From a virus (lineage: Duplodnaviria; Heunggongvirae; Uroviricota; Caudoviricetes): a stretch of DNA of 7,097 nucleotides. Positions 1 through 7,097 of this stretch are shown one piece after another (the first letter of the stretch is position 1; each line of letters begins with the position of its first letter). Both the position numbers and the translations under genes were made by a program. The DNA lies in IMG/VR virus record IMGVR_UViG_2671180846_000033; one strand, given 5' to 3'. Below the pieces are notes generated by a model. It saw only the letters and a list, made by a program, of their open reading frames with translations, was not told the origin of the DNA and did not search any database.

Positions 1-495
1 TGGGGCTTTTCTCTATCTGCCGTTGGTGTTCATGCCCGAGGCAGATAGCCTCAAGCACCCGCAGCTATTCTACTTAACTTCCCATTACCTCGCCAATATG
101 AAATCGGTCAGAAAGACAGACGTCCCATAAGGACAACAACGGAAAAAGAGATTTTGCTTGATGCTATTTACCTCTGCACCATGAAGTTGCGCCAAAATCC
201 CAGTGGTGATAACAGGAATTTGGTTGTTGGTGATTGGGGAAAGAAGTACGTTAGACTGTGGGTTAGTTCATTGACATGATAGTTACCTGCCTTCAATTTC
301 CTAAGCAAGCGATGTAAACGATAATCAATATCAAATGTATTGACAGGTAAAATAATAACGATGTACCTTTGCTGATAACATATATCAGTCTTAAATCATA
401 ATGGAGGTAGATAAAATAACTAAACACACACAACAAATTTTTTATCAGTGACATAGCATATCTTAAGCATCCTTTAATGCTCATGGGGAGAACGC

Positions 496-1269
496 ATGAC
501 TAAACATATGGACATTCATTGTCAAACACGCATATTTAACTCAATTAACCATGACACCAAATATAAAATATGTATTTTTACTCCAAAAAACATTAAAAAA
601 AATAATGCAACTCTTTATATACTTGATGGGAATAGTGCCAACAATTACATTTCTGATATTCTGCCTGTTATTGATGCACTACCCAATCCACCAGTGTTAG
701 TTACACTTGGTTATGAATCTTGGAATAACCTTAGCATTCATCGCCGTGCTTACGATTATACTCCTGATGGTGAAAATGCTATTGTTGATAACTCTAAACC
801 AGCATGGATCTACTTTACTGGTGGAGGAAGCCAGTCTTTCCGAGAATTATTACTAACTCAGATCATGCCATGGGTTAGTACTATTGCTCCGAACAGTTCC
901 AGAATCGGTATATGGGGGCACTCGCTAGGTGCTATTTTTGTGCTTGATTGCTTAAAAAATAATTCATGCTTTAACTATTATTATATATCTGCACCATCAC
1001 TTCTATGGCAGAATGAAAGAATCATCAAGATAATTAAAGATGATATATCAGAATCAAAGCACACTAAAAGTATATGCTTGCTTAACGGAAATCTTAGCCT
1101 TGATTACTCCGCATCTTTATATCCTGAAGCCATCAAAGCGGAATCTGTTTTGAGAAATATTTTGACAGAAAAATACAGTAATTTTTCTATTGTACAATTT
1201 CCAGAGCTCAATCATCAGGAGACTTTCTCTGCTGCACTCTGGAATAGCATTATTCATTTCAGCATATAA
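496..1269 (+). CDS. Alpha/beta-hydrolase, putative esterase of the IroE/Fes (siderophore esterase / esterase D) type; no recognisable N-terminal signal peptide
   Basis: 257-aa ORF with ATG at 496 preceded by GGGGAG (485-490). Contains a G-H-S-L-G nucleophile elbow (Ser codon 922-924), an LDG motif near the N-terminus, AYDYTP, and a C-terminal ELNHQ histidine. The N-terminus is hydrophilic. The gene sits in visibly AT-rich DNA. Family call is from motif pattern only. Confidence 0.75.
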   Translation: MTKHMDIHCQTRIFNSINHDTKYKICIFTPKNIKKNNATLYILDGNSANNYISDILPVIDALPNPPVLVTLGYESWNNLSIHRRAYDYTPDGENAIVDNSKPAWIYFTGGGSQSFRELLLTQIMPWVSTIAPNSSRIGIWGHSLGAIFVLDCLKNNSCFNYYYISAPSLLWQNERIIKIIKDDISESKHTKSICLLNGNLSLDYSASLYPEAIKAESVLRNILTEKYSNFSIVQFPELNHQETFSAALWNSIIHFSI

Positions 1270-1620
1270 CAGAAAATATGTAATCACTTTATCAATCTAG
1301 CTAACATAACTGATATCAATCCTAATGGGTCTTTGAACATATTAAAAGATAACTTCTCATTTGTACATTGTTGTGTTCTTAGACCCATTTCAAAAATACT
1401 ATTTTTTAGATACTAATAATTACATCCATTTAGCTATCTTCTAAATACTCCTCTCAGTTTCTTCATTGGAGCTGATTCAACTCCGGCAATGCATACTAGG
1501 ATCATTTTATAAGCATACAAACAACATCCAGACTGTGAATTATTGCTATTCATTTTCTATGTATCTGCTCTTTTCCCATCCACTGAAACACCAGAATCCA
1601 AAGGTTTCATGTTATTTTCA

Positions 1621-2034
1621 CTATTCCATCATTACTCCTGTGTAAAATATCAAAACTCGCTGCATCACTTCACTGTTACGGCACTCACTACAAATTATGT
1701 TCAATTGCCTGTCATAGCGGCGTATTTCTCCGTCTGGTAATGACCAGATAAGGTCAGGATCAACCACAACCGGTTTCTTCAGTTTTGCCCTCGATAGTTT
1801 TTTGCGGGCGTTTTGCCAGTCCTTACGAGCCTGTTCAGATGGGAATAACCCGTAACCAGAGTTGTATACATCGCCACTGGCAACCAGCTCTCTGGCAAGA
1901 ACGCTCATCAGATATCTTGTCGCACCTGTCTTGGCTTCCAGTTGCCGTAACGTCTCGCGCCCACTCCGGCGTACTAGCTCAACAACCTGCCCTTTAATTT
2001 TTTCCCGCTCTTCCTGTGTAAATACTTTTGCCAT
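1621..2034 (-). CDS. Hypothetical phage protein (138 aa) downstream of the P-like gene
   Basis: The ORF track starts at a TTG (2049); an in-frame ATG at 2034 is preceded by GGAGG with 5-nt spacing. The 3' end runs into the AT-rich island. Function not recognised. Confidence 0.55.
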   Translation of the reverse strand: MAKVFTQEEREKIKGQVVELVRRSGRETLRQLEAKTGATRYLMSVLARELVASGDVYNSGYGLFPSEQARKDWQNARKKLSRAKLKKPVVVDPDLIWSLPDGEIRRYDRQLNIICSECRNSEVMQRVLIFYTGVMME

Positions 2035-2049
2035 AAGCGCCTCCGGCAA

Positions 2050-2805
2050 TCACTTTTCCGATACAACACGGCGGGAAGAATCAGTAATCTGTCGAACAAT
2101 ATCCCGGTGCTTGTTCAGCTCCCGCAGCGCGGCGCAGACTCGCTCCCACTTCTGAACATCACTTTTCGCCCTGCGCAGCGCCAGGTTTGCCCTGCGAAGG
2201 GACGGAAAAATCAGCTCATCTGCTTGCGTTTCGGTAAACGATGGCAACGGCTGCACAATGTCCGCCACAGTTTCTGTTTTAATTTCTTCCTGTGTTGCGG
2301 CTTCCCGGACTGGTAACGCAGCACCTGCTGGCTGAGGAAAGGCNNNNNNNNNNNNNNNNNNNNNNNNNNNNNNNNNNNNNNNNNNNNNNNNNNCGGATGC
2401 AGCTTCCGGCTCTGCCGGTAAATCAGCGCCCGGTATGCAGTAACGAAATTTACCGCCCTGATTCACGCGAATCAGACGCCCTTTGCTGATTACCATGGCC
2501 AGCGATGAATTCGCCCGGCGGGAGGTAATCCCGAACATCAGTGCCAGCTCATCCGCCGTTTGTGGGCCATGTTGTTCAATCGCCTCAGTCAGCATTTGCG
2601 CTGTCACTTTCGGTACCGGTGACACCGGTTCACTTTCACCAGCCTGAATCAGCCACCACATCGACCCCTTGTTATCCGCTTCACCGCGGCGCTTCAGTTT
2701 CCACAGTTCGTTGACCGCATCTTCACGGCTGATTCCAAGGCGGGCCGCCACTACCTGTGAAGAGGCTCTTTTCAGTGCTTTCAGTGCGTCAAATACGGTT
2801 TCCAT
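2050..2805 (-). CDS. Hypothetical phage protein with two winged-helix-like segments; interrupted by a 50-N run
   Basis: Track ORF 2050-2823 starts at TTG; in-frame ATG at 2805 is preceded by GGAGG. The protein reads plausibly on both sides of the N-run 2344-2393. No Walker motif seen; function unknown. Confidence 0.6.
2344..2393. other. Run of 50 N (masked or gap sequence) inside a CDS
   Basis: Directly visible in the sequence. Confidence 1.
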
Positions 2806-2838
2806 TAAAATTTCCTCCGACAAAATCGTTTCTCAGAT

Positions 2839-3399
2839 TCAAATAAAACCAGCTGCCTTCCGGCGTTCGTATTCCTGTTTCAGCCGCTCAATTGGCGTTG
2901 GCCCTTGCGGGTGTTTCGCCCCTTCCAGTTGTCGTCGCACTGGCGGAACACTCATCCCGTTACCAACATGCTTTGCCCATTTCGTCAGTTGCCGTTCTGC
3001 AAGTAGTTTTAACTCACCCTGCGTCATCTGGCGCTCAATCCCTCTGGTACGCATTTCGAGGCAGATGTGGTACAGCACAGGCTGTGGCCACGGGTATTTA
3101 TCACTCCCGTCGTATCGCCAGGATTCATTGCGCCAGCGCCGGTACTCTTCCATCACGGCATCCACCGTAAGACCAAATGGATTTGCCCCACTCTCCGAAA
3201 TCAGCGCAACAAACTCAGCCAGGTCCGGGGGCCACGTTTCACCCGCCCGGCAGCGGTCCATGCACTGACGGCAGACCAGACGGATTTGCTGTTCAGTCAT
3301 CGCACCAATCTGGGCAATCCAGAGCTTCGAAGGTGCGGCCCCGTTCTTCTGAGTCCAGCGGTTCGAATACACCTCCCCCATAAGCTCCCACAGCTTCCA
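2839..3399 (-). CDS. Replication protein P-like (lambda P family helicase-loader homologue); 5' end undetermined because of the N-run
   Basis: The translation matches my recollection of the lambda P central and C-terminal regions (MTEQQI, a PPDLAEFVAL segment, DKYPW, a TQGELKLLAERQL segment). The ORF-track start (TTG at 3495) lies in sequence that reads better in the O-like frame. The true start is either ATG at 3381 (GGGAG upstream) or inside the N-run. Confidence 0.65.
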   Translation of the reverse strand, partial: WKLWELMGEVYSNRWTQKNGAAPSKLWIAQIGAMTEQQIRLVCRQCMDRCRAGETWPPDLAEFVALISESGANPFGLTVDAVMEEYRRWRNESWRYDGSDKYPWPQPVLYHICLEMRTRGIERQMTQGELKLLAERQLTKWAKHVGNGMSVPPVRRQLEGAKHPQGPTPIERLKQEYERRKAAGFI

Positions 3400-3449
3400 N
3401 NNNNNNNNNNNNNNNNNNNNNNNNNNNNNNNNNNNNNNNNNNNNNNNNN
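3400..3449. other. Run of 50 N at the O-like/P-like gene junction
   Basis: Directly visible in the sequence. Confidence 1.
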
Positions 3450-4168
3450 GTGAAAACCTTCCCCTCCGCCATCCAGTAATCCCGGAATGCGGCAAGCTCA
3501 GCAGGTGTAAATTCCGGCTCAGGCAGAGCCATACCCCACACTGCTGCCCGTTGTCGAAAATCCGGCGACGGCTGCCAGACAGTAGTCATCGAAAATTTCC
3601 CGATCGGTTCGCTCAGGCCGTCCAGGTATTCAGGTTCGGCTGTCTGCAACGGCGCACCATGCGACTCACTGGTCGGAATACTCTCGCGTTCACGCACGTT
3701 ATGTGTGGGGTTTAATTCTTTTAGATCTGTATCTTTATTAGTTGCTTTTGTGTTTGCGTCATGTTCAAACACAACACCAACATTTGTTTGAACACCTGTT
3801 AAATCTCTCTCTTGTTTTGTTTGAACATATGCTTCCTTTCTGCTTCTTCTGGCCTGAACAGATGCTTTTCCGGCGGCTGATTTTTTGGTCAATTTTTCCC
3901 TGACTGATGCCAGATCTTCCTCAATCCGAAGATGCACCCATTCATCGCTGTTATCGCAAAAAAACTCCCGCAAGGATGGTTCCACATCAGCCCATCGCTC
4001 GTTAGTCAGACGGGAAATTTTTGCCAGCCTGTTTTTAGGTATTGGTTTCCCTGTTTGCCAGTAATTGAACATCAGCAACAAATACGCACCGTGCTCCTCT
4101 GCGGACAAATGCATGGTGTCAGCCAGGTAATCAGCTATGTACAGTTGCATGTATGGTAATGCGGCCAT
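3450..4168 (-). CDS. Replication initiator, DUF1376/YdaU-like (functional analogue of lambda O); 3' end undetermined (in or beyond the N-run)
   Basis: N-terminal segment [32 protein letters not shown] resembles DUF1376 proteins, followed by a low-complexity linker and a C-terminal domain. ATG at 4168 has GAGG 5 nt upstream; the track start at 4222 is a TTG. The frame stays open across the N-run to 3293, but that stretch overlaps convincing P-like coding. Confidence 0.65.
3762..3828. repeat. Iteron-like repeats inside the O-like gene (candidate replication origin)
   Basis: TGTTCAAACA (3762-3771) is the exact reverse complement of TGTTTGAACA, which occurs at 3785-3794 and again at 3818-3827 as part of TTTGTTTGAACA. 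The repeats lie in the AT-rich linker-coding part of the initiator gene. Confidence 0.45.
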
Positions 4169-4254
4169 AATTGCCTCATCTTGTGACGAACCATCCTCTG
4201 GTGATATTCTGTGATTCCCCAATCAACAGAATCAGCAGGGGTCTGGCATAAATA

Positions 4255-4692
4255 TCAATGCACCACAACAGACTCGCCGGATGACCCGCCGTCGCTGAAA
4301 TACGCTTTCCGGTAAACTGCCTGGACTGCATCATCATGCGCATCAATTGCCGTGCTCAACGCTTCCTGGGCCGCCAGTAATGCACGGCGCTCAACAGTGT
4401 CAAAAATACTGAGGTGATAACGCAGTTCACGCGGAAGAACAGTCAGGATAGCTGGAATTAGTGCCTGAATTTTTTCAACAGCATCAGGCGTATCCTTTTC
4501 AAGCCAGCGAAAAATATTTTGTATGTTCAATCCAATACCCTCTGTCGTAGAGGTGTCATGCATTGGTGGATAAGTCATTTCAAGCTCAAAATATGCTGTC
4601 GCTATATCATCAGCGATTTTTTTGCGCCCTACCCTCGGATAAAGCAGCCACGCATTCATCGCCATGCGGATGTGCTCATGCTTGATTTTCAT
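4255..4692 (-). CDS. ydaT: YdaT-like protein (CII functional analogue of YdaS/YdaT-type prophages)
   Basis: 145-aa ORF starting MKIKHEHI with a C-terminal segment LIPAILTVLPRELRYHLSIFDTVERRALLAAQEALSTAIDAHDDAVQAVYRKAYF that I recognise as YdaT-family. Its ATG (4692-4690) overlaps the upstream gene's TGA in an ATGA junction. Confidence 0.75.
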   Translation of the reverse strand: MKIKHEHIRMAMNAWLLYPRVGRKKIADDIATAYFELEMTYPPMHDTSTTEGIGLNIQNIFRWLEKDTPDAVEKIQALIPAILTVLPRELRYHLSIFDTVERRALLAAQEALSTAIDAHDDAVQAVYRKAYFSDGGSSGESVVVH

Positions 4693-4949
4693 GAATCAAC
4701 TCCCGCCGCTGCTTGTGCGTTAGCCTGATACTCAACAGGTAAACCATCGGTTGGATTAGGGTATTTATCAGGGCGCAATTCATGCGGAGTTACTCCCCAG
4801 TCAAGCGCCTCACATGCTGGTATAACCTCCTCCGCTGGCACTCGTTTTTTAAACCACCCACTTATGGTTTGCGGTGTTTTACCAAGACGACGCCCTAATT
4901 CTGATTGGCTCATTATTGACAGGATTTTCACTTGAGTACTTTTTTGCAT
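4689..4949 (-). CDS. ydaS: Cro-like HTH regulator, YdaS-like
   Basis: 86-aa ORF with ATG at 4949 preceded by GGAGGG. HTH segment SQSELGRRLGKTPQTISGW; divergent from the repressor gene. Confidence 0.7.
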   Translation of the reverse strand: MQKSTQVKILSIMSQSELGRRLGKTPQTISGWFKKRVPAEEVIPACEALDWGVTPHELRPDKYPNPTDGLPVEYQANAQAAAGVDS

Positions 4950-5075
4950 GTTTCCCTCCGAACTTTACGATGACACCGATAATTACAAATTTAAATTTAA
5001 ATTTCAACTTCTATTTGTAATGCCACTTATCAATTTTTTCTGTAGGATCGCGGAACTAGTTTACGAGGGGTGGTG
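4950..5075. promoter_or_regulatory. Divergent control region between the Cro-like and CI-like genes (OR-like)
   Basis: ATTACAAAT (4982-4990) and its reverse complement ATTTGTAAT (5013-5021) flank a palindromic (AAATTT)x3 tract (4987-5004). The 14-bp motif AATTACAAATTTAA (4981-4994) recurs at 6223-6236. Ribosome-binding sites for both flanking genes are present. Confidence 0.6.
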
Positions 5076-5468
5076 ATGATCTTTGTAAAACGCCTTCAGC
5101 AGGTGTTGCAGGAATTGAATATAAACCAGTCAGAGCTGGGAAGACGTCTTGGTGTAAAACCCCAATCCGTGCAAGGTTGGTTGAAAGGCGTGATGCCAAG
5201 AATGGATAAACTGGAAAAATTAGCAGAGCTCTCACAACATCCCGTCCATTGGTTCTTTATGGAAGAAGAAACTCTCGGCGATAAAATGGCTGTATCCAGT
5301 AATGACAACCAACCGCAACTTACAGAACAACAACGAAAAATCATATCGCTTTTAGATGAGTTACCTCAAAGCGACGCAGAGCAGATCATTCGTGATATGG
5401 AGCAAAAACGCGATTTCTATAAACGGAAACTTGAAGAGTTACTGCGGCAGAAAAACAAAACTGCCTGA
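5076..5468 (+). CDS. CI-like phage repressor, XRE-family HTH with coiled-coil-like C-terminus and no S24 peptidase domain
   Basis: The track ORF starts at GTG 5070; ATG at 5076 is preceded by GAGGGG (5065-5070). HTH segment NQSELGRRLGVKPQSVQGW; C-terminal 50 aa are charged and heptad-like. About 130 aa, too short for a LexA-type cleavage domain. Confidence 0.8.
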   Translation: MIFVKRLQQVLQELNINQSELGRRLGVKPQSVQGWLKGVMPRMDKLEKLAELSQHPVHWFFMEEETLGDKMAVSSNDNQPQLTEQQRKIISLLDELPQSDAEQIIRDMEQKRDFYKRKLEELLRQKNKTA

Positions 5469-5499
5469 TGCATTCCTTTTCTGGAACGAGCATCAGGCA
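5462..5499. terminator. Hairpin between the convergent repressor and higA genes (candidate bidirectional terminator)
   Basis: TGCCTGATGC (5462-5471) pairs with GCATCAGGCA (5490-5499), with inner TTCC/GGAA pairing. A T-rich tract follows on the minus strand (reverse complement of 5441-5461). Confidence 0.5.
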
Positions 5500-5514
5500 A
5501 ATGACTAGCAGATT

Positions 5515-5874
5515 TTATAATCCAACCAGGCTTTCCAGGGGGATACCAAATTGATTATGAAGACGGCGAATCATTGGTAACGTAAGGCTTCTGGTACCAT
5601 TCAACACCTCATAAACCCGATTTTTTTTCCCAATTGCGGGTTCCAAATCTTTCACAGTCAGCCCCTGCTGTTCCATGCGAAATCTTATAGCTTCAATTGG
5701 GGATGGTGGCTCAATGGGATAATGTTTTTTTTCATATTCCTCTATTAGCAAACACATCACCTCAAAAAAATCCCCCTCAGGCGTGTCAATTTCGGGCTCA
5801 TTGTCGAACATGGGTTCAACAGCACGCAACGCGGCTTCATAATCTTGCTCTGTACGAATAGGTTTGATGTTCAT
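5515..5874 (-). CDS. higA: HigA-type antitoxin (XRE HTH, type II TA)
   Basis: 119-aa ORF with C-terminal HTH LTVKDLEPAIGKKNRVYEVLNGTRSLTLPMIRRL. Starts 2 nt after the toxin stop, with GGAG upstream. Confidence 0.8.
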   Translation of the reverse strand: MNIKPIRTEQDYEAALRAVEPMFDNEPEIDTPEGDFFEVMCLLIEEYEKKHYPIEPPSPIEAIRFRMEQQGLTVKDLEPAIGKKNRVYEVLNGTRSLTLPMIRRLHNQFGIPLESLVGL

Positions 5875-5876
5875 GC

Positions 5877-6179
5877 TTACTCCAGTTCGATGGTATCAGC
5901 ATCAATAGCATCGTATTCCTTGTGGTTTCCGATGAATTTAACAAATACCCATCCTCGCTGATACGCAATTGCAACAATTAAACGGTAATGATTACCTTTT
6001 ATGTTGAATACCACGCGCCGGTTTTTCAATATACTGGCCGTTCGGTATTGTGCCTTAATGTCTGCTGGGCTTTTCCAGTCAGCTTTTGCCGCCTCATCCA
6101 CCCATGCCCTTAGCGGTTGTTCTGCATCAGGATTCTCCGCCCAAAAATCCCTGAGTGTTTTAACTGAGATAATCTTCAT
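5877..6179 (-). CDS. higB: HigB-type toxin (RelE/ParE superfamily)
   Basis: HigB-like pattern in the translation, including GNHYRLIV and KFIGNHKEYDAID. The track start (6224) is a TTG; the ATG at 6179 gives about 100 aa. Toxin precedes antitoxin, as in HigBA modules. Confidence 0.8.
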   Translation of the reverse strand: MKIISVKTLRDFWAENPDAEQPLRAWVDEAAKADWKSPADIKAQYRTASILKNRRVVFNIKGNHYRLIVAIAYQRGWVFVKFIGNHKEYDAIDADTIELE

Positions 6180-6190
6180 AACTGTATAGT

Positions 6191-6207
6191 AGTCCCATTT
6201 TGGGACT
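6191..6207. promoter_or_regulatory. Perfect 17-bp palindrome AGTCCCATTTTGGGACT just upstream of higB (candidate HigA/HigBA operator)
   Basis: Read directly from the sequence; lies 12-28 nt upstream of the higB ATG on the minus strand. Confidence 0.5.
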
Positions 6208-6222
6208 GATGCAACAGCCCGC

Positions 6223-6276
6223 AATTACAAATTTAATAATAAACATGTTGACCAGTTAAATTTTAATTTGTAAATT
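6223..6276 (+). promoter_or_regulatory. pL-like promoter/operator region for the rightward early operon (OL-like)
   Basis: Second copy of AATTACAAATTTAA (6223-6236); TTGACC (6248-6253), 17-bp spacer, TAAATT (6271-6276); inverted ATTTGTAA (6266-6273) overlaps the -10. Confidence 0.5.
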
Positions 6277-6457
6277 GTATCCATAAACCCACCCCGCCCC
6301 ACAGAACGCAGGGCAATACTTCGAGTTACCCGGCAGTGGTCAGGGGTTAAGTAGCCAGCCTGAGGCGTATGAACATGACGGCGGGGATTACGTTTAACTA
6401 TGCAGCAGGTTTTTTGTTCCGCTACCCCGGCGTTAAGGGGAAACAGAGGATTTCTCA

Positions 6458-6814
6458 GTGGGCGAAGTCAAACATCAGAATGGAAGGCATCCAGGGATCA
6501 GCAAAGAAACAGCGATGGCGCTTTATATTGATATCAGCGCCATTGCCGGACAGGTAAGAATTATCAGAGCGGTAACTAAGCGGTATGCGCCTTTACTTCA
6601 GAAAGTCTCTGGTGAGTGCACCGAAGATATTGTCAACGATTTCGTCATCAAACTGCGAGGACTCATCTTCAGTTACAAGGTGACCACAATTTTTGCAGAT
6701 GGCTCCCGCGAAACTGTCAGAGCCCTGCGGCTTAAAGGATGTGTCAAAGACTTAGCCACCACATTCTGGGCAAGAAAACTTGATTGTATTCATAACCAAT
6801 TTCCTCTCGAGTAA
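6458..6814 (+). CDS. Hypothetical early-left operon protein
   Basis: 118-aa ORF from GTG 6458 (AGAGGA 7 nt upstream) or about 100 aa from ATG 6515. No family recognised. Confidence 0.5.
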   Translation: MGEVKHQNGRHPGISKETAMALYIDISAIAGQVRIIRAVTKRYAPLLQKVSGECTEDIVNDFVIKLRGLIFSYKVTTIFADGSRETVRALRLKGCVKDLATTFWARKLDCIHNQFPLE

Positions 6815-6885
6815 CAGACCCCTCAGAGGATACCACCTCGCCTGACGTGGTTAAAAGCAGGCAGCGCTAACCACAAGGAGCCGAC

Positions 6886-7097
6886 ATGCAGAAACGAGAA
6901 CCCGTCATCATCGCGCCAGACTATACCGATGATGAACTTTATGAGTGGATGCACCAGAAAATTAAGGCAGCGCAGGACCTGAAATGGGCCAATGAAGCCA
7001 GGGCTAAGCAGGCTGAAAATCTGTCCGCTCTGGAGCAGGATATCACCAATCTGGAAAAAGCAGCGGCATTAAGCATTGCCAGAATGATTACATACCC
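6886..7097 (+). CDS. Hypothetical early-left operon protein, 5' part (runs off the window end)
   Basis: ATG at 6886 preceded by AAGGAG (6876-6881). Open frame to the window end; translation begins MQKREPVIIAPDYTDDELYEW and continues with a coiled-coil-like segment. Not in the ORF track because no stop is reached. Confidence 0.55.
   Translation, partial: MQKREPVIIAPDYTDDELYEWMHQKIKAAQDLKWANEARAKQAENLSALEQDITNLEKAAALSIARMITY

Follow-up and report, generated by a model that had tools for sequence, protein, structure and literature searches.

A leaderless esterase gene of the IroE family in an AT-rich island of lambdoid Escherichia coli prophages

Why should a lambdoid prophage of Escherichia coli carry a single AT-rich gene that faces against the operon it borders, and what could the product of this gene do for the lysogen? 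The question is raised by the IMG/VR virus record IMGVR_UViG_2671180846_000033, a stretch of 7,097 nucleotides (hereafter the window) that represents the early-right part of a lambdoid prophage of E. coli, in the orientation opposite to phage transcription. In its first part lies an island with one gene of 257 codons (496-1269, + strand). A preliminary description, made from the sequence letters, had taken the gene for an IroE/Fes-like or esterase D-like hydrolase without an export signal, carried on a moron. Our analysis assigns the product to a known enzyme family, of which it is a divergent member, encoded by a phage and without a leader; so far it has been annotated only generically. The reading that we develop below, namely a moron that encodes a cytoplasmic catecholate-siderophore esterase with its own promoter and probably under Fur control, has in our estimate a probability of about one half.

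Family, fold and N-terminus of the esterase

The frame at 496-1269 is the sole convincing open reading frame (ORF) of the island and runs opposite to the genes of the replication block, in agreement with the single gene of opposite orientation, downstream of the replication module, that had been described before. Searching the PDB with phmmer revealed a match to IroE (2gzr) over residues 8-253 with an E-value of 5.1e-26, followed by BES (2qm0; E=9e-13), PfeE (E=1.5e-11) and, more weakly, fungal siderophore esterases. All 11 of the 11 sequence matches were siderophore esterases. To the same effect, the AlphaFold2 model of the protein, built on an alignment of 67 sequences, has a predicted local distance difference test (pLDDT) value of 91.1 and a predicted template modelling score (pTM) of 0.91, and its comparison with the PDB by Foldseek placed siderophore esterases in each of the top 30 positions with template modelling (TM) scores of 0.72-0.80. 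The best of these was again IroE (2gzs), with E=3e-19 and TM 0.78/0.80 over 256 columns. S-formylglutathione hydrolases and feruloyl esterases lay far behind, at E-values of ~1e-9 and TM 0.50-0.57.

The nucleophile elbow GHSLG, already pointed out in the preliminary description, comprises residues 141-145 (916-930, +), and the codon of its Ser143 occupies 922-924. Further catalytic-site codons on the + strand are those of Asp44 (625-627), Arg84 (745-747) and His240 (1213-1215). Aligned to 2gzr, residues D44, R84, S143 and H240 coincide with D90, R130, S189 and H287 of IroE, which are obtained by adding 40 to the chain numbering (50, 90, 149 and 247). Five residues, D44, R84, D87, G110 and G141, do not vary in the 67-sequence alignment, and conservation of H142, S143 and H240 is at least 90%. 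Asp90 (in the motif LDGN) and Arg130 (in R-x-x-D-Y-T-P) of IroE reportedly assist catalysis (Larsen et al. 2006). The catalytic dyad of IroE is Ser189/His287 (PMC10515146). At the level of fold and catalytic residues, we therefore consider it highly probable that the product is an IroE-type esterase.

Of the three family names in the preliminary description, only IroE stood. Fes gave no sequence match in the PDB at E<=1; its lid domain is absent from the prophage protein, and the structural match reached E ~5e-10 with a TM score of 0.45 on the length of Fes. Esterase D, that is, S-formylglutathione hydrolase of the FrmB/YeiG type, likewise gave no sequence match in the PDB, and its TM scores were 0.50-0.57.

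When comparing the prophage esterase with characterised enzymes, the closest likeness is to IroE, the salmochelin/enterobactin trilactone hydrolase of the iroBCDEN cluster, which is the best match in both sequence and fold (2gzr/2gzs). Both are single-domain proteins with no lid. Unlike IroE, the prophage esterase has no N-terminal anchor or signal, is unlinked to iroB, iroC, iroD and iroN, and is encoded at 34.5% GC; the two proteins are 26-28% identical. BesA/BES (2qm0) is structurally as close (TM 0.80/0.77, E=7e-18), of similar length and also leaderless. Whereas BES is encoded by a chromosomal gene of Firmicutes that is linked to siderophore uptake, the prophage esterase is enterobacterial and shares 19-22% identity with it. 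BesA is cytoplasmic and frees iron from Fe-bacillibactin. PfeE of Pseudomonas aeruginosa (6gi0-6gi5) has the same fold and catalytic serine (Foldseek E=2.7e-18, TM 0.75-0.77) but is periplasmic, has its gene beside the receptor gene pfeA, and is 20-22% identical; PMC8001512 describes it as a periplasmic enzyme that hydrolyses Fe-enterobactin. Fes and IroD would resemble the prophage esterase in compartment and in kind of reaction, and their hydrolase core is distantly similar (Foldseek E ~5e-10). Fes differs by an extra N-terminal lid domain of ~150 residues and by a Ser-His-Glu triad (PMC10515146). On enterobactin or salmochelin, IroE linearises the apo-siderophores in the periplasm, whereas Fes and IroD attack the iron-loaded forms inside the cytoplasm (PMC7403778).

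The start of the gene is well defined. The ORF opens at the first ATG past an in-frame stop, and since this stop lies only 6 codons upstream, the N-terminus of the protein cannot extend further. A Shine-Dalgarno sequence, GGGGAG (485-490, +), is found 5 nt before the ATG, and this stretch is invariant in all alleles save for base 495. The hydrophilic N-terminus and the missing export signal that the preliminary description had noted were both borne out. No hydrophobic stretch exists in the first 40 residues (best 12-residue Kyte-Doolittle mean 0.0), and neither a twin-arginine translocation (Tat) motif nor a lipobox or membrane segment was found in the esterase, in which the best 19-residue mean over the whole protein is 1.2. 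We also considered a lost leader, of which a remnant might persist upstream of the ATG; the three frames there give stops only, and no 'PLGxNIADxGS' motif.

The relatives of the protein are built differently at this end. A hydrophobic N-terminal segment is present in 87 of 127 relatives, which carry ~36-46 extra residues; the median extension in the 124 relatives outside the protein's own cluster is 36 residues. In the closest ones, a signal peptide is followed by a conserved 'PLGxNIADxGS' stretch. Both are missing in the prophage esterase, which is thus short of the leader and of ~15 conserved residues of the mature N-terminus. Leaderless family members do exist (for example, the relative P0100 and the BES protein), so that leaderlessness is unusual for this branch, not for the fold. 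Because it has neither signal nor anchor, the esterase most likely stays in the cytoplasm.

Copies of the gene fall into three allele groups that are ~13% apart in DNA: group A, to which the window belongs, group B (IMG/VR loci L018/L019; 92% amino acid identity) and group C (L020-L023 and L003; 90%). The 257 codons are kept in all groups, with zero insertions or deletions (indels) over the 774 bp of coding sequence and indels in both flanks. Pairwise ratios of nonsynonymous to synonymous substitution rates (dN/dS) are 0.13-0.25 at dS values of up to 0.32, and the differences are distributed over the three codon positions as 18/10/45. The esterase gene is under purifying selection. Separately, two rare variants (P0007 and P0017) begin in the overlapping +1 frame, at an ATG at 551, and return to the esterase frame near the A-runs at 583-602, which read AAAAAA-CATT-AAAAAAAA. 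A few genomes may have experienced slippage or deletion from one A-run to the other, or contain sequencing errors.

The island, its junctions and its distribution

The preliminary description had set an AT-rich island, judged by eye, at 140-1740. Calculation supports the composition: these positions have a GC content of 34.7%, compared to 48.4% for the rest (1741-7097), with a binomial z of ~11. The values for the esterase ORF and the 3' stretch 1270-1620 are 34.5% and 31.3%, respectively. The GC content at third codon positions of the esterase ORF is 0.283, as against 0.41-0.48 in five neighbouring phage genes. The bounds themselves require correction. Comparisons between alleles and with island-free prophages delimit a cargo unit of ~1.4 kb and ~33% GC at ~243-1642; the right end proposed before lies ~100 bp inside the neighbouring DUF977 gene, and on the left, 116-242 is the remnant of an antirepressor gene.

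Two kinds of comparison fix these borders. A copy of the island that has diverged to 86% DNA identity, found in the swine strain CFSAN018748 (L003) and in the IMG/VR contigs L020-L023, aligns to the window from exactly 243 through past 1642 and has a different left junction. In a related prophage of strain N54, QueH fills the slot between the DUF977 gene and hokD, and this prophage has in common with the window only 1-115 and 1643-2044. Homology to the DUF977 gene of island-free prophages starts at 1636-1658, within the DUF977 frame, and the last ~7 codons of that gene (1621-1642) thus come from the insert. As the end of the gene lies on the island side of the breakpoint, the insertion replaced the native C-terminus of the DUF977 protein.

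On the left, the junction debris (116-242, - strand) corresponds to the C-terminal part of an antirepressor (Ant/ORF6N/P22AR), recognised by blastn and annotated in RefSeq as an incomplete pseudogene. By blastn, positions ~150-244 of the window share 76-83% identity with the terminal parts of Ant/ORF6N genes that other E. coli prophages and plasmids carry. Allele groups A and B have this remnant, whereas group C lacks it; the left junction has therefore been remodelled at least once. Untidy junctions such as these are typical of illegitimate recombination.

The slot is delimited by the DUF977 gene, which closes the replication block, on one side and by hok/sok on the other. All 19 of the 19 IMG/VR loci hold the island in this same slot, and in every copy read the esterase gene stands alone between DUF977 and hokD, with no iroBCDEN cluster, siderophore receptor or transporter. 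In the O103 strain RM8385, whose prophage matches window positions 1923-7097 at 98.6% identity, DUF977 is followed by a different set of small, unrelated genes of the nin type, and the slot is consequently variable. With its deviant composition, its presence/absence polymorphism and this variable lambdoid slot, 243-1642 is a horizontally acquired moron, as had been suspected.

Morons of lambdoid phages, as defined by Juhala and Hendrix, are exemplified by bor and lom of lambda. The island is reminiscent of these in being an extra gene amid conserved phage genes, with deviant composition, absent in related prophages and in need of its own promoter; the esterase is also plausibly expressed in the lysogen. 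In contrast to typical morons, the island has junctions that cut into neighbouring genes, a promoter that is only predicted, and no terminator that we could find.

Of 5426 complete E. coli genomes, ~465 contain the island, ~458 of them at an identity of at least 99%. O157:H7 prevails among the carriers in the matches listed, which also include O145, O26 and O103 strains as well as a few isolates of swine or clinical origin. The esterase gene itself is 100% identical among O157:H7, O145, O26 and O103 strains. In O157:H7 Sakai it is ECs_1077, a 'hypothetical protein' gene in prophage Sp4, which also holds pchA, a regulator gene for the enterocyte effacement locus (LEE). RefSeq names the product 'alpha/beta hydrolase' (WP_000160654.1), and in PHROGs it belongs to phrog_8493, of function unknown.

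The gene is absent from the deposited phage genomes of INPHARED, in which the only matches were iroE-like at 29% identity and came from bacterial-contig records or a small fragment. In a plasmid search, the sole full match was a record labelled EDL933; the other matches cover the Ant remnant. Among 1.84 billion representative proteins, 998 family members were recovered at E<=1e-3, and the nearest proteins beyond the esterase's own cluster are 31-33% identical. Across 185,579 species, each represented by one genome, the best relatives outside E. coli are from Pantoea and Mixta (33-36%) and from Acinetobacter (30-32%); where their source records give a name, it is just 'alpha/beta hydrolase'. 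No donor can be named, because no species representative genome contains a relative of more than 36% identity. As far as these sequence collections reach, the esterase lineage is known only from E. coli-type prophages. Catalogued viral protein structures offered no comparable fold, the best match reaching TM 0.56.

The gene is selectively maintained and identical across several serogroups of E. coli strains that make Shiga toxin (STEC), yet it is without literature. Our searches found none on ECs1077, WP_000160654 or NP_309104, nor any publication about an enterobactin esterase or IroE-like enzyme encoded by a prophage. Judged by numbering offsets, ECs_1077 may be the gene listed as Z1341 in the EDL933 annotation. 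Contact with HEp-2 cells was accompanied by a 2.5-fold upregulation of Z1341, an 'unknown protein of CP-933M', and by upregulation of exbB, chuU and fepC (PMC2654852).

Expression, substrate and rival explanations

The esterase gene faces against the early-right operon and therefore needs its own promoter. The 5' flank is where such a promoter would lie, and it is well conserved: at 251-500, 82-94% of the columns are invariant among four copies from three allele groups, which equals or exceeds the coding region. In the same four copies, 70-78% of the columns of the 3' flank are invariant, about as predicted for neutral sequence from dS values of 0.24-0.32. An antisense ORF in the 5' flank (293-484, - strand; 63 residues, hydrophobic) was considered as the cause of this conservation and rejected, as it is frameshifted in allele group C.

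Two elements of the 5' flank are relevant to regulation. The first is a candidate Fur box, GTAAACGATAATCAATATC (314-332, +), which agrees with the consensus GATAATGATAATCATTATC at 15/19 positions, more than any other site on the two strands of the window. The next-best site in the window reaches 13/19, only 0.4% of shuffles of the 5' flank reach 15/19, and group C holds 14/19 by hand count. Matches of the 15/19 type occur at 0.24 per kb in AT-rich control DNA, corresponding to ~0.06 expected in the 5' flank, with a background that may itself hold real Fur sites. The second is a candidate promoter core (373-402, +), which scored 9/12 in the promoter scan and comprises a -35-like ATAACA (375-380) and a -10 CATAAT (397-402). 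It encloses an inverted repeat, CTGATA-N5-TATCAG (372-388). Between the -35-like and -10 elements, TGATAACATATATCA (373-387) matches the Fur 7-1-7 motif at 11/14 and is invariant; positions 357-388 are identical across all three allele groups. Given these Fur-box-like sequences in the 5' flank, expression of the esterase is probably iron-repressed through Fur, and this in the lysogen. As a separate observation, overlapping Fur-consensus matches of 14-16/19 (GATAATTATTATCATTTTG, 16/19) also occur in the lysis region of Sakai Sp4, between ECs_1100 and ECs_1101 (L005 36876-36900).

Downstream of the gene, the 3' flank (1270-1642, 31% GC) is non-coding, with no conserved ORF on either strand. Compared to its allele C counterpart in L003, it is 80% identical with 16 gapped columns. 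A further gene or an RNA at 1270-1642 was rejected: all six frames are full of stops, Rfam returned no match, and divergence is near neutral.

These features can be combined into the following model. In the lysogen, transcription of the esterase gene would start at a separate promoter within the conserved 5' flank and would probably be repressed by iron. The product would be a cytoplasmic serine esterase of the IroE fold with a Ser-His dyad and the conserved Asp and Arg. Its most likely reaction would be hydrolysis of the ester bonds in the backbone of enterobactin or a related catecholate trilactone siderophore, which is the kind of reaction that Fes, IroD and BesA carry out in the cytoplasm. 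The location in the cytoplasm, the siderophore as substrate, control by Fur and any benefit to the host are the inferred parts of this model. One possible role is the linearisation of apo-enterobactin before export; another would be the release of iron from a siderophore that Fes handles poorly. Linear trimers protect Salmonella against peroxide (PMC7403778). The more specific proposal, that an STEC prophage gives its host a Fur-controlled cytoplasmic IroE-type esterase that alters how the lysogen handles catecholate siderophores, is one that we advance tentatively and hold to be doubtful as it stands.

Should the enzyme prove to attack siderophores of the enterobactin type within the cytoplasm, Sp4-like prophages would aid iron acquisition or protection against oxidative stress in O157:H7 and other STEC, and a metabolic trait would join the known phage-borne toxins, effectors and regulators. 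On the more specific proposal, the gene would be an unrecognised phage-borne iron or oxidative-stress fitness factor of enterohaemorrhagic E. coli, and its product would rank among the rare enzymes of siderophore processing that phages carry.

A number of observations weigh against the siderophore model, at the level of substrate as well as of expression. The assignment of the substrate is made across 26-33% identity to characterised enzymes. Its main weakness is that the two nearest relatives are not beside siderophore genes, which reduces the force of an inference by homology: for the two closest non-E. coli relatives read, from Pantoea (P0023 and P0026), no siderophore genes were found nearby, and the neighbours were AzlCD, DJ-1 and AcrB genes in one case and a fructose phosphotransferase system (PTS) in the other. 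The host E. coli already has the cytoplasmic Fes, which makes the need for a second enzyme questionable. Profile searches, with which the preliminary description had proposed to check membership of a hydrolase family, gave a borderline result: Pfam PF00756 ('Putative esterase') scored 17 bits, under its 22-bit cut-off, and no NCBIfam model matches the esterase, although the direct comparison with IroE is unambiguous. With regard to expression, the Fur-like site is a consensus match in AT-rich DNA. The number of 9/12 promoter-like sites in 1-2100 is not above that in shuffled sequence, which makes the promoter call a weak one, and a terminator on the + strand was not found after the esterase stop codon. 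Lastly, a missing Sec or Tat signal may still leave export by another route possible.

Several of these points are equally in line with an active cytoplasmic esterase of the IroE fold whose substrate is not a siderophore but a different lactone or ester that E. coli encounters in the gut, or a molecule that stems from the phage or the host. An identity of only 26-36% to any other protein, among the 1.84 billion representatives and the genomes of 185,579 species, would fit this reading, as would the location of both Pantoea relatives outside siderophore clusters, the subthreshold PF00756 score together with the lack of an NCBIfam match, and a host already equipped with Fes. The best 30 structural and all 11 PDB sequence matches, however, are siderophore esterases, the Arg and Asp that IroE uses besides its dyad are invariant, and Fur-like sites lie within a 5' flank under constraint. 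We regard a non-siderophore substrate as a serious possibility, though on balance an unlikely one; the gene would in this case encode an ordinary accessory esterase.

It is very unlikely that the gene is a non-functional remnant, that is, an iroE-like gene truncated at its 5' end that lost its leader by illegitimate recombination and is carried passively. Such an origin would account for the missing leader and ~15 mature N-terminal residues, for the untidy junctions (on the left the debris of Ant, on the right a DUF977 gene with its C-terminus replaced) and for the rare frameshifted or internally deleted variants P0007 and P0017. The kept frame, the dN/dS values of 0.13-0.25 and the lack of coding indels, in a locus whose flanks do have them, nevertheless argue strongly against decay. 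The gene has lost none of its catalytic residues, its Shine-Dalgarno sequence is shared by the alleles, and the AlphaFold2 fold is complete and confident. Moreover, IroE lacking ~40 N-terminal residues is reportedly the form that Lin et al. (2005) and Larsen et al. (2006) crystallised and found active, which likewise speaks against truncation as a sign of lost function.

Still less credit can be given to Sec-independent export, for instance of an effector that LEE-positive E. coli would release by type III secretion and that would act outside the bacterial cytoplasm. The low GC content, the lambdoid prophage setting, the 100% identity over O157:H7, O145, O26 and O103, the polar leaderless N-terminus and the presence of pchA in Sakai Sp4 would all suit an effector. 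Prophage effector genes, however, usually lie beyond the tail genes, and the esterase gene occupies a nin-region slot. It also has no similarity to any effector family, shows no sequence feature specific to secretion, and occurs in swine and other isolates. We also give little credence to a role in serving the phage, by superinfection exclusion or counter-defence such as altering the traffic of siderophore receptors that phages or siderophore-microcins use, for despite its place in an accessory-gene slot adjoining a Ren-like exclusion gene and hok/sok, the esterase has no match to PADLOC anti-phage defence families at E<=0.01, falls in a PHROG family without assigned function, opposes the lytic transcript and has no partner gene.

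The prophage around the island

The remainder of the window shows the layout of a lambdoid early-right region, with most genes on the - strand. Beginning at the far end, a HigB gene (5877-6224, -) and a HigA gene (5515-5874, -) are followed by the gene of a cI-like repressor (5070-5468, +), a Cro/YdaS-like gene (4689-4949, -) and YdaT (4255-4692, -). The replication block comprises an O-like DUF1376/DnaT protein (3293-4222, -), a lambda-P-like protein (2839-3495, -), DUF1627 (2050-2823, -) and, as neighbour of the island, the DUF977 or Ren-like exclusion gene (1621-2049, -), which was recognised by Pfam DUF977 (4.3e-27) and by phrog_142, 'Ren-like exclusion protein' (5e-45). Two runs of 50 N (2344-2393 and 3400-3449) are masked sequence within the DUF1627 and O/P-like genes; they give rise to stretches of X in the translations and to an artificial overlap of the ORFs 2839-3495 and 3293-4222.

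To the left of the island, the edge of the window cuts a sok antisense RNA (1-60, -; Rfam RF01794, 52.9 bits, E=6.5e-10) of the hokD/sok type I toxin-antitoxin module. Each of the related prophages that were read has hokD annotated beside the sok position. A second toxin-antitoxin module, the HigB/HigA pair (5515-6224, -), adjoins the cI-like repressor; at the equivalent place, Sakai Sp4 and strain N54 have RelB/RelE. The immunity region thus appears to exchange toxin-antitoxin modules.

The window as a whole is absent from every one of the 5426 complete E. coli genomes in the collection. Its positions 1-2100 are identical to Sp4-type prophages, and 1923-7097 are 98.6% identical to a prophage of O103/O26/O111 strains. 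On this alignment pattern the window looks recombinant, with an Sp4-like left part, a right part of the O103/O26/O111 type and a crossover inside DUF977/DUF1627.

The DUF977 gene beside the island is also broken by differing insertion sequences (ISs): by ISEc8 in O157:H7 PV15-279 (L001 13482-16345) and by IS2 in CFSAN018748 (L003 7393-9146). In PE164 (match H28), an IS3-family transposase is annotated under the match. These cases suggest that DUF977 beside the island is a local hot spot for IS insertion. A match to the Rfam family CRISPR-DR57 inside DUF977 (1726-1764; 21 bits, E=0.53) was taken as chance.

The same prophages carry a second, unrelated esterase cargo. This is a 617-residue carbohydrate esterase of the SASA family (L001 4433-6283; L004 1573-3423; ECs_1088 in Sakai), which we take to be of the NanS-p type; its gene is located downstream of the Q antiterminator and tRNA genes.

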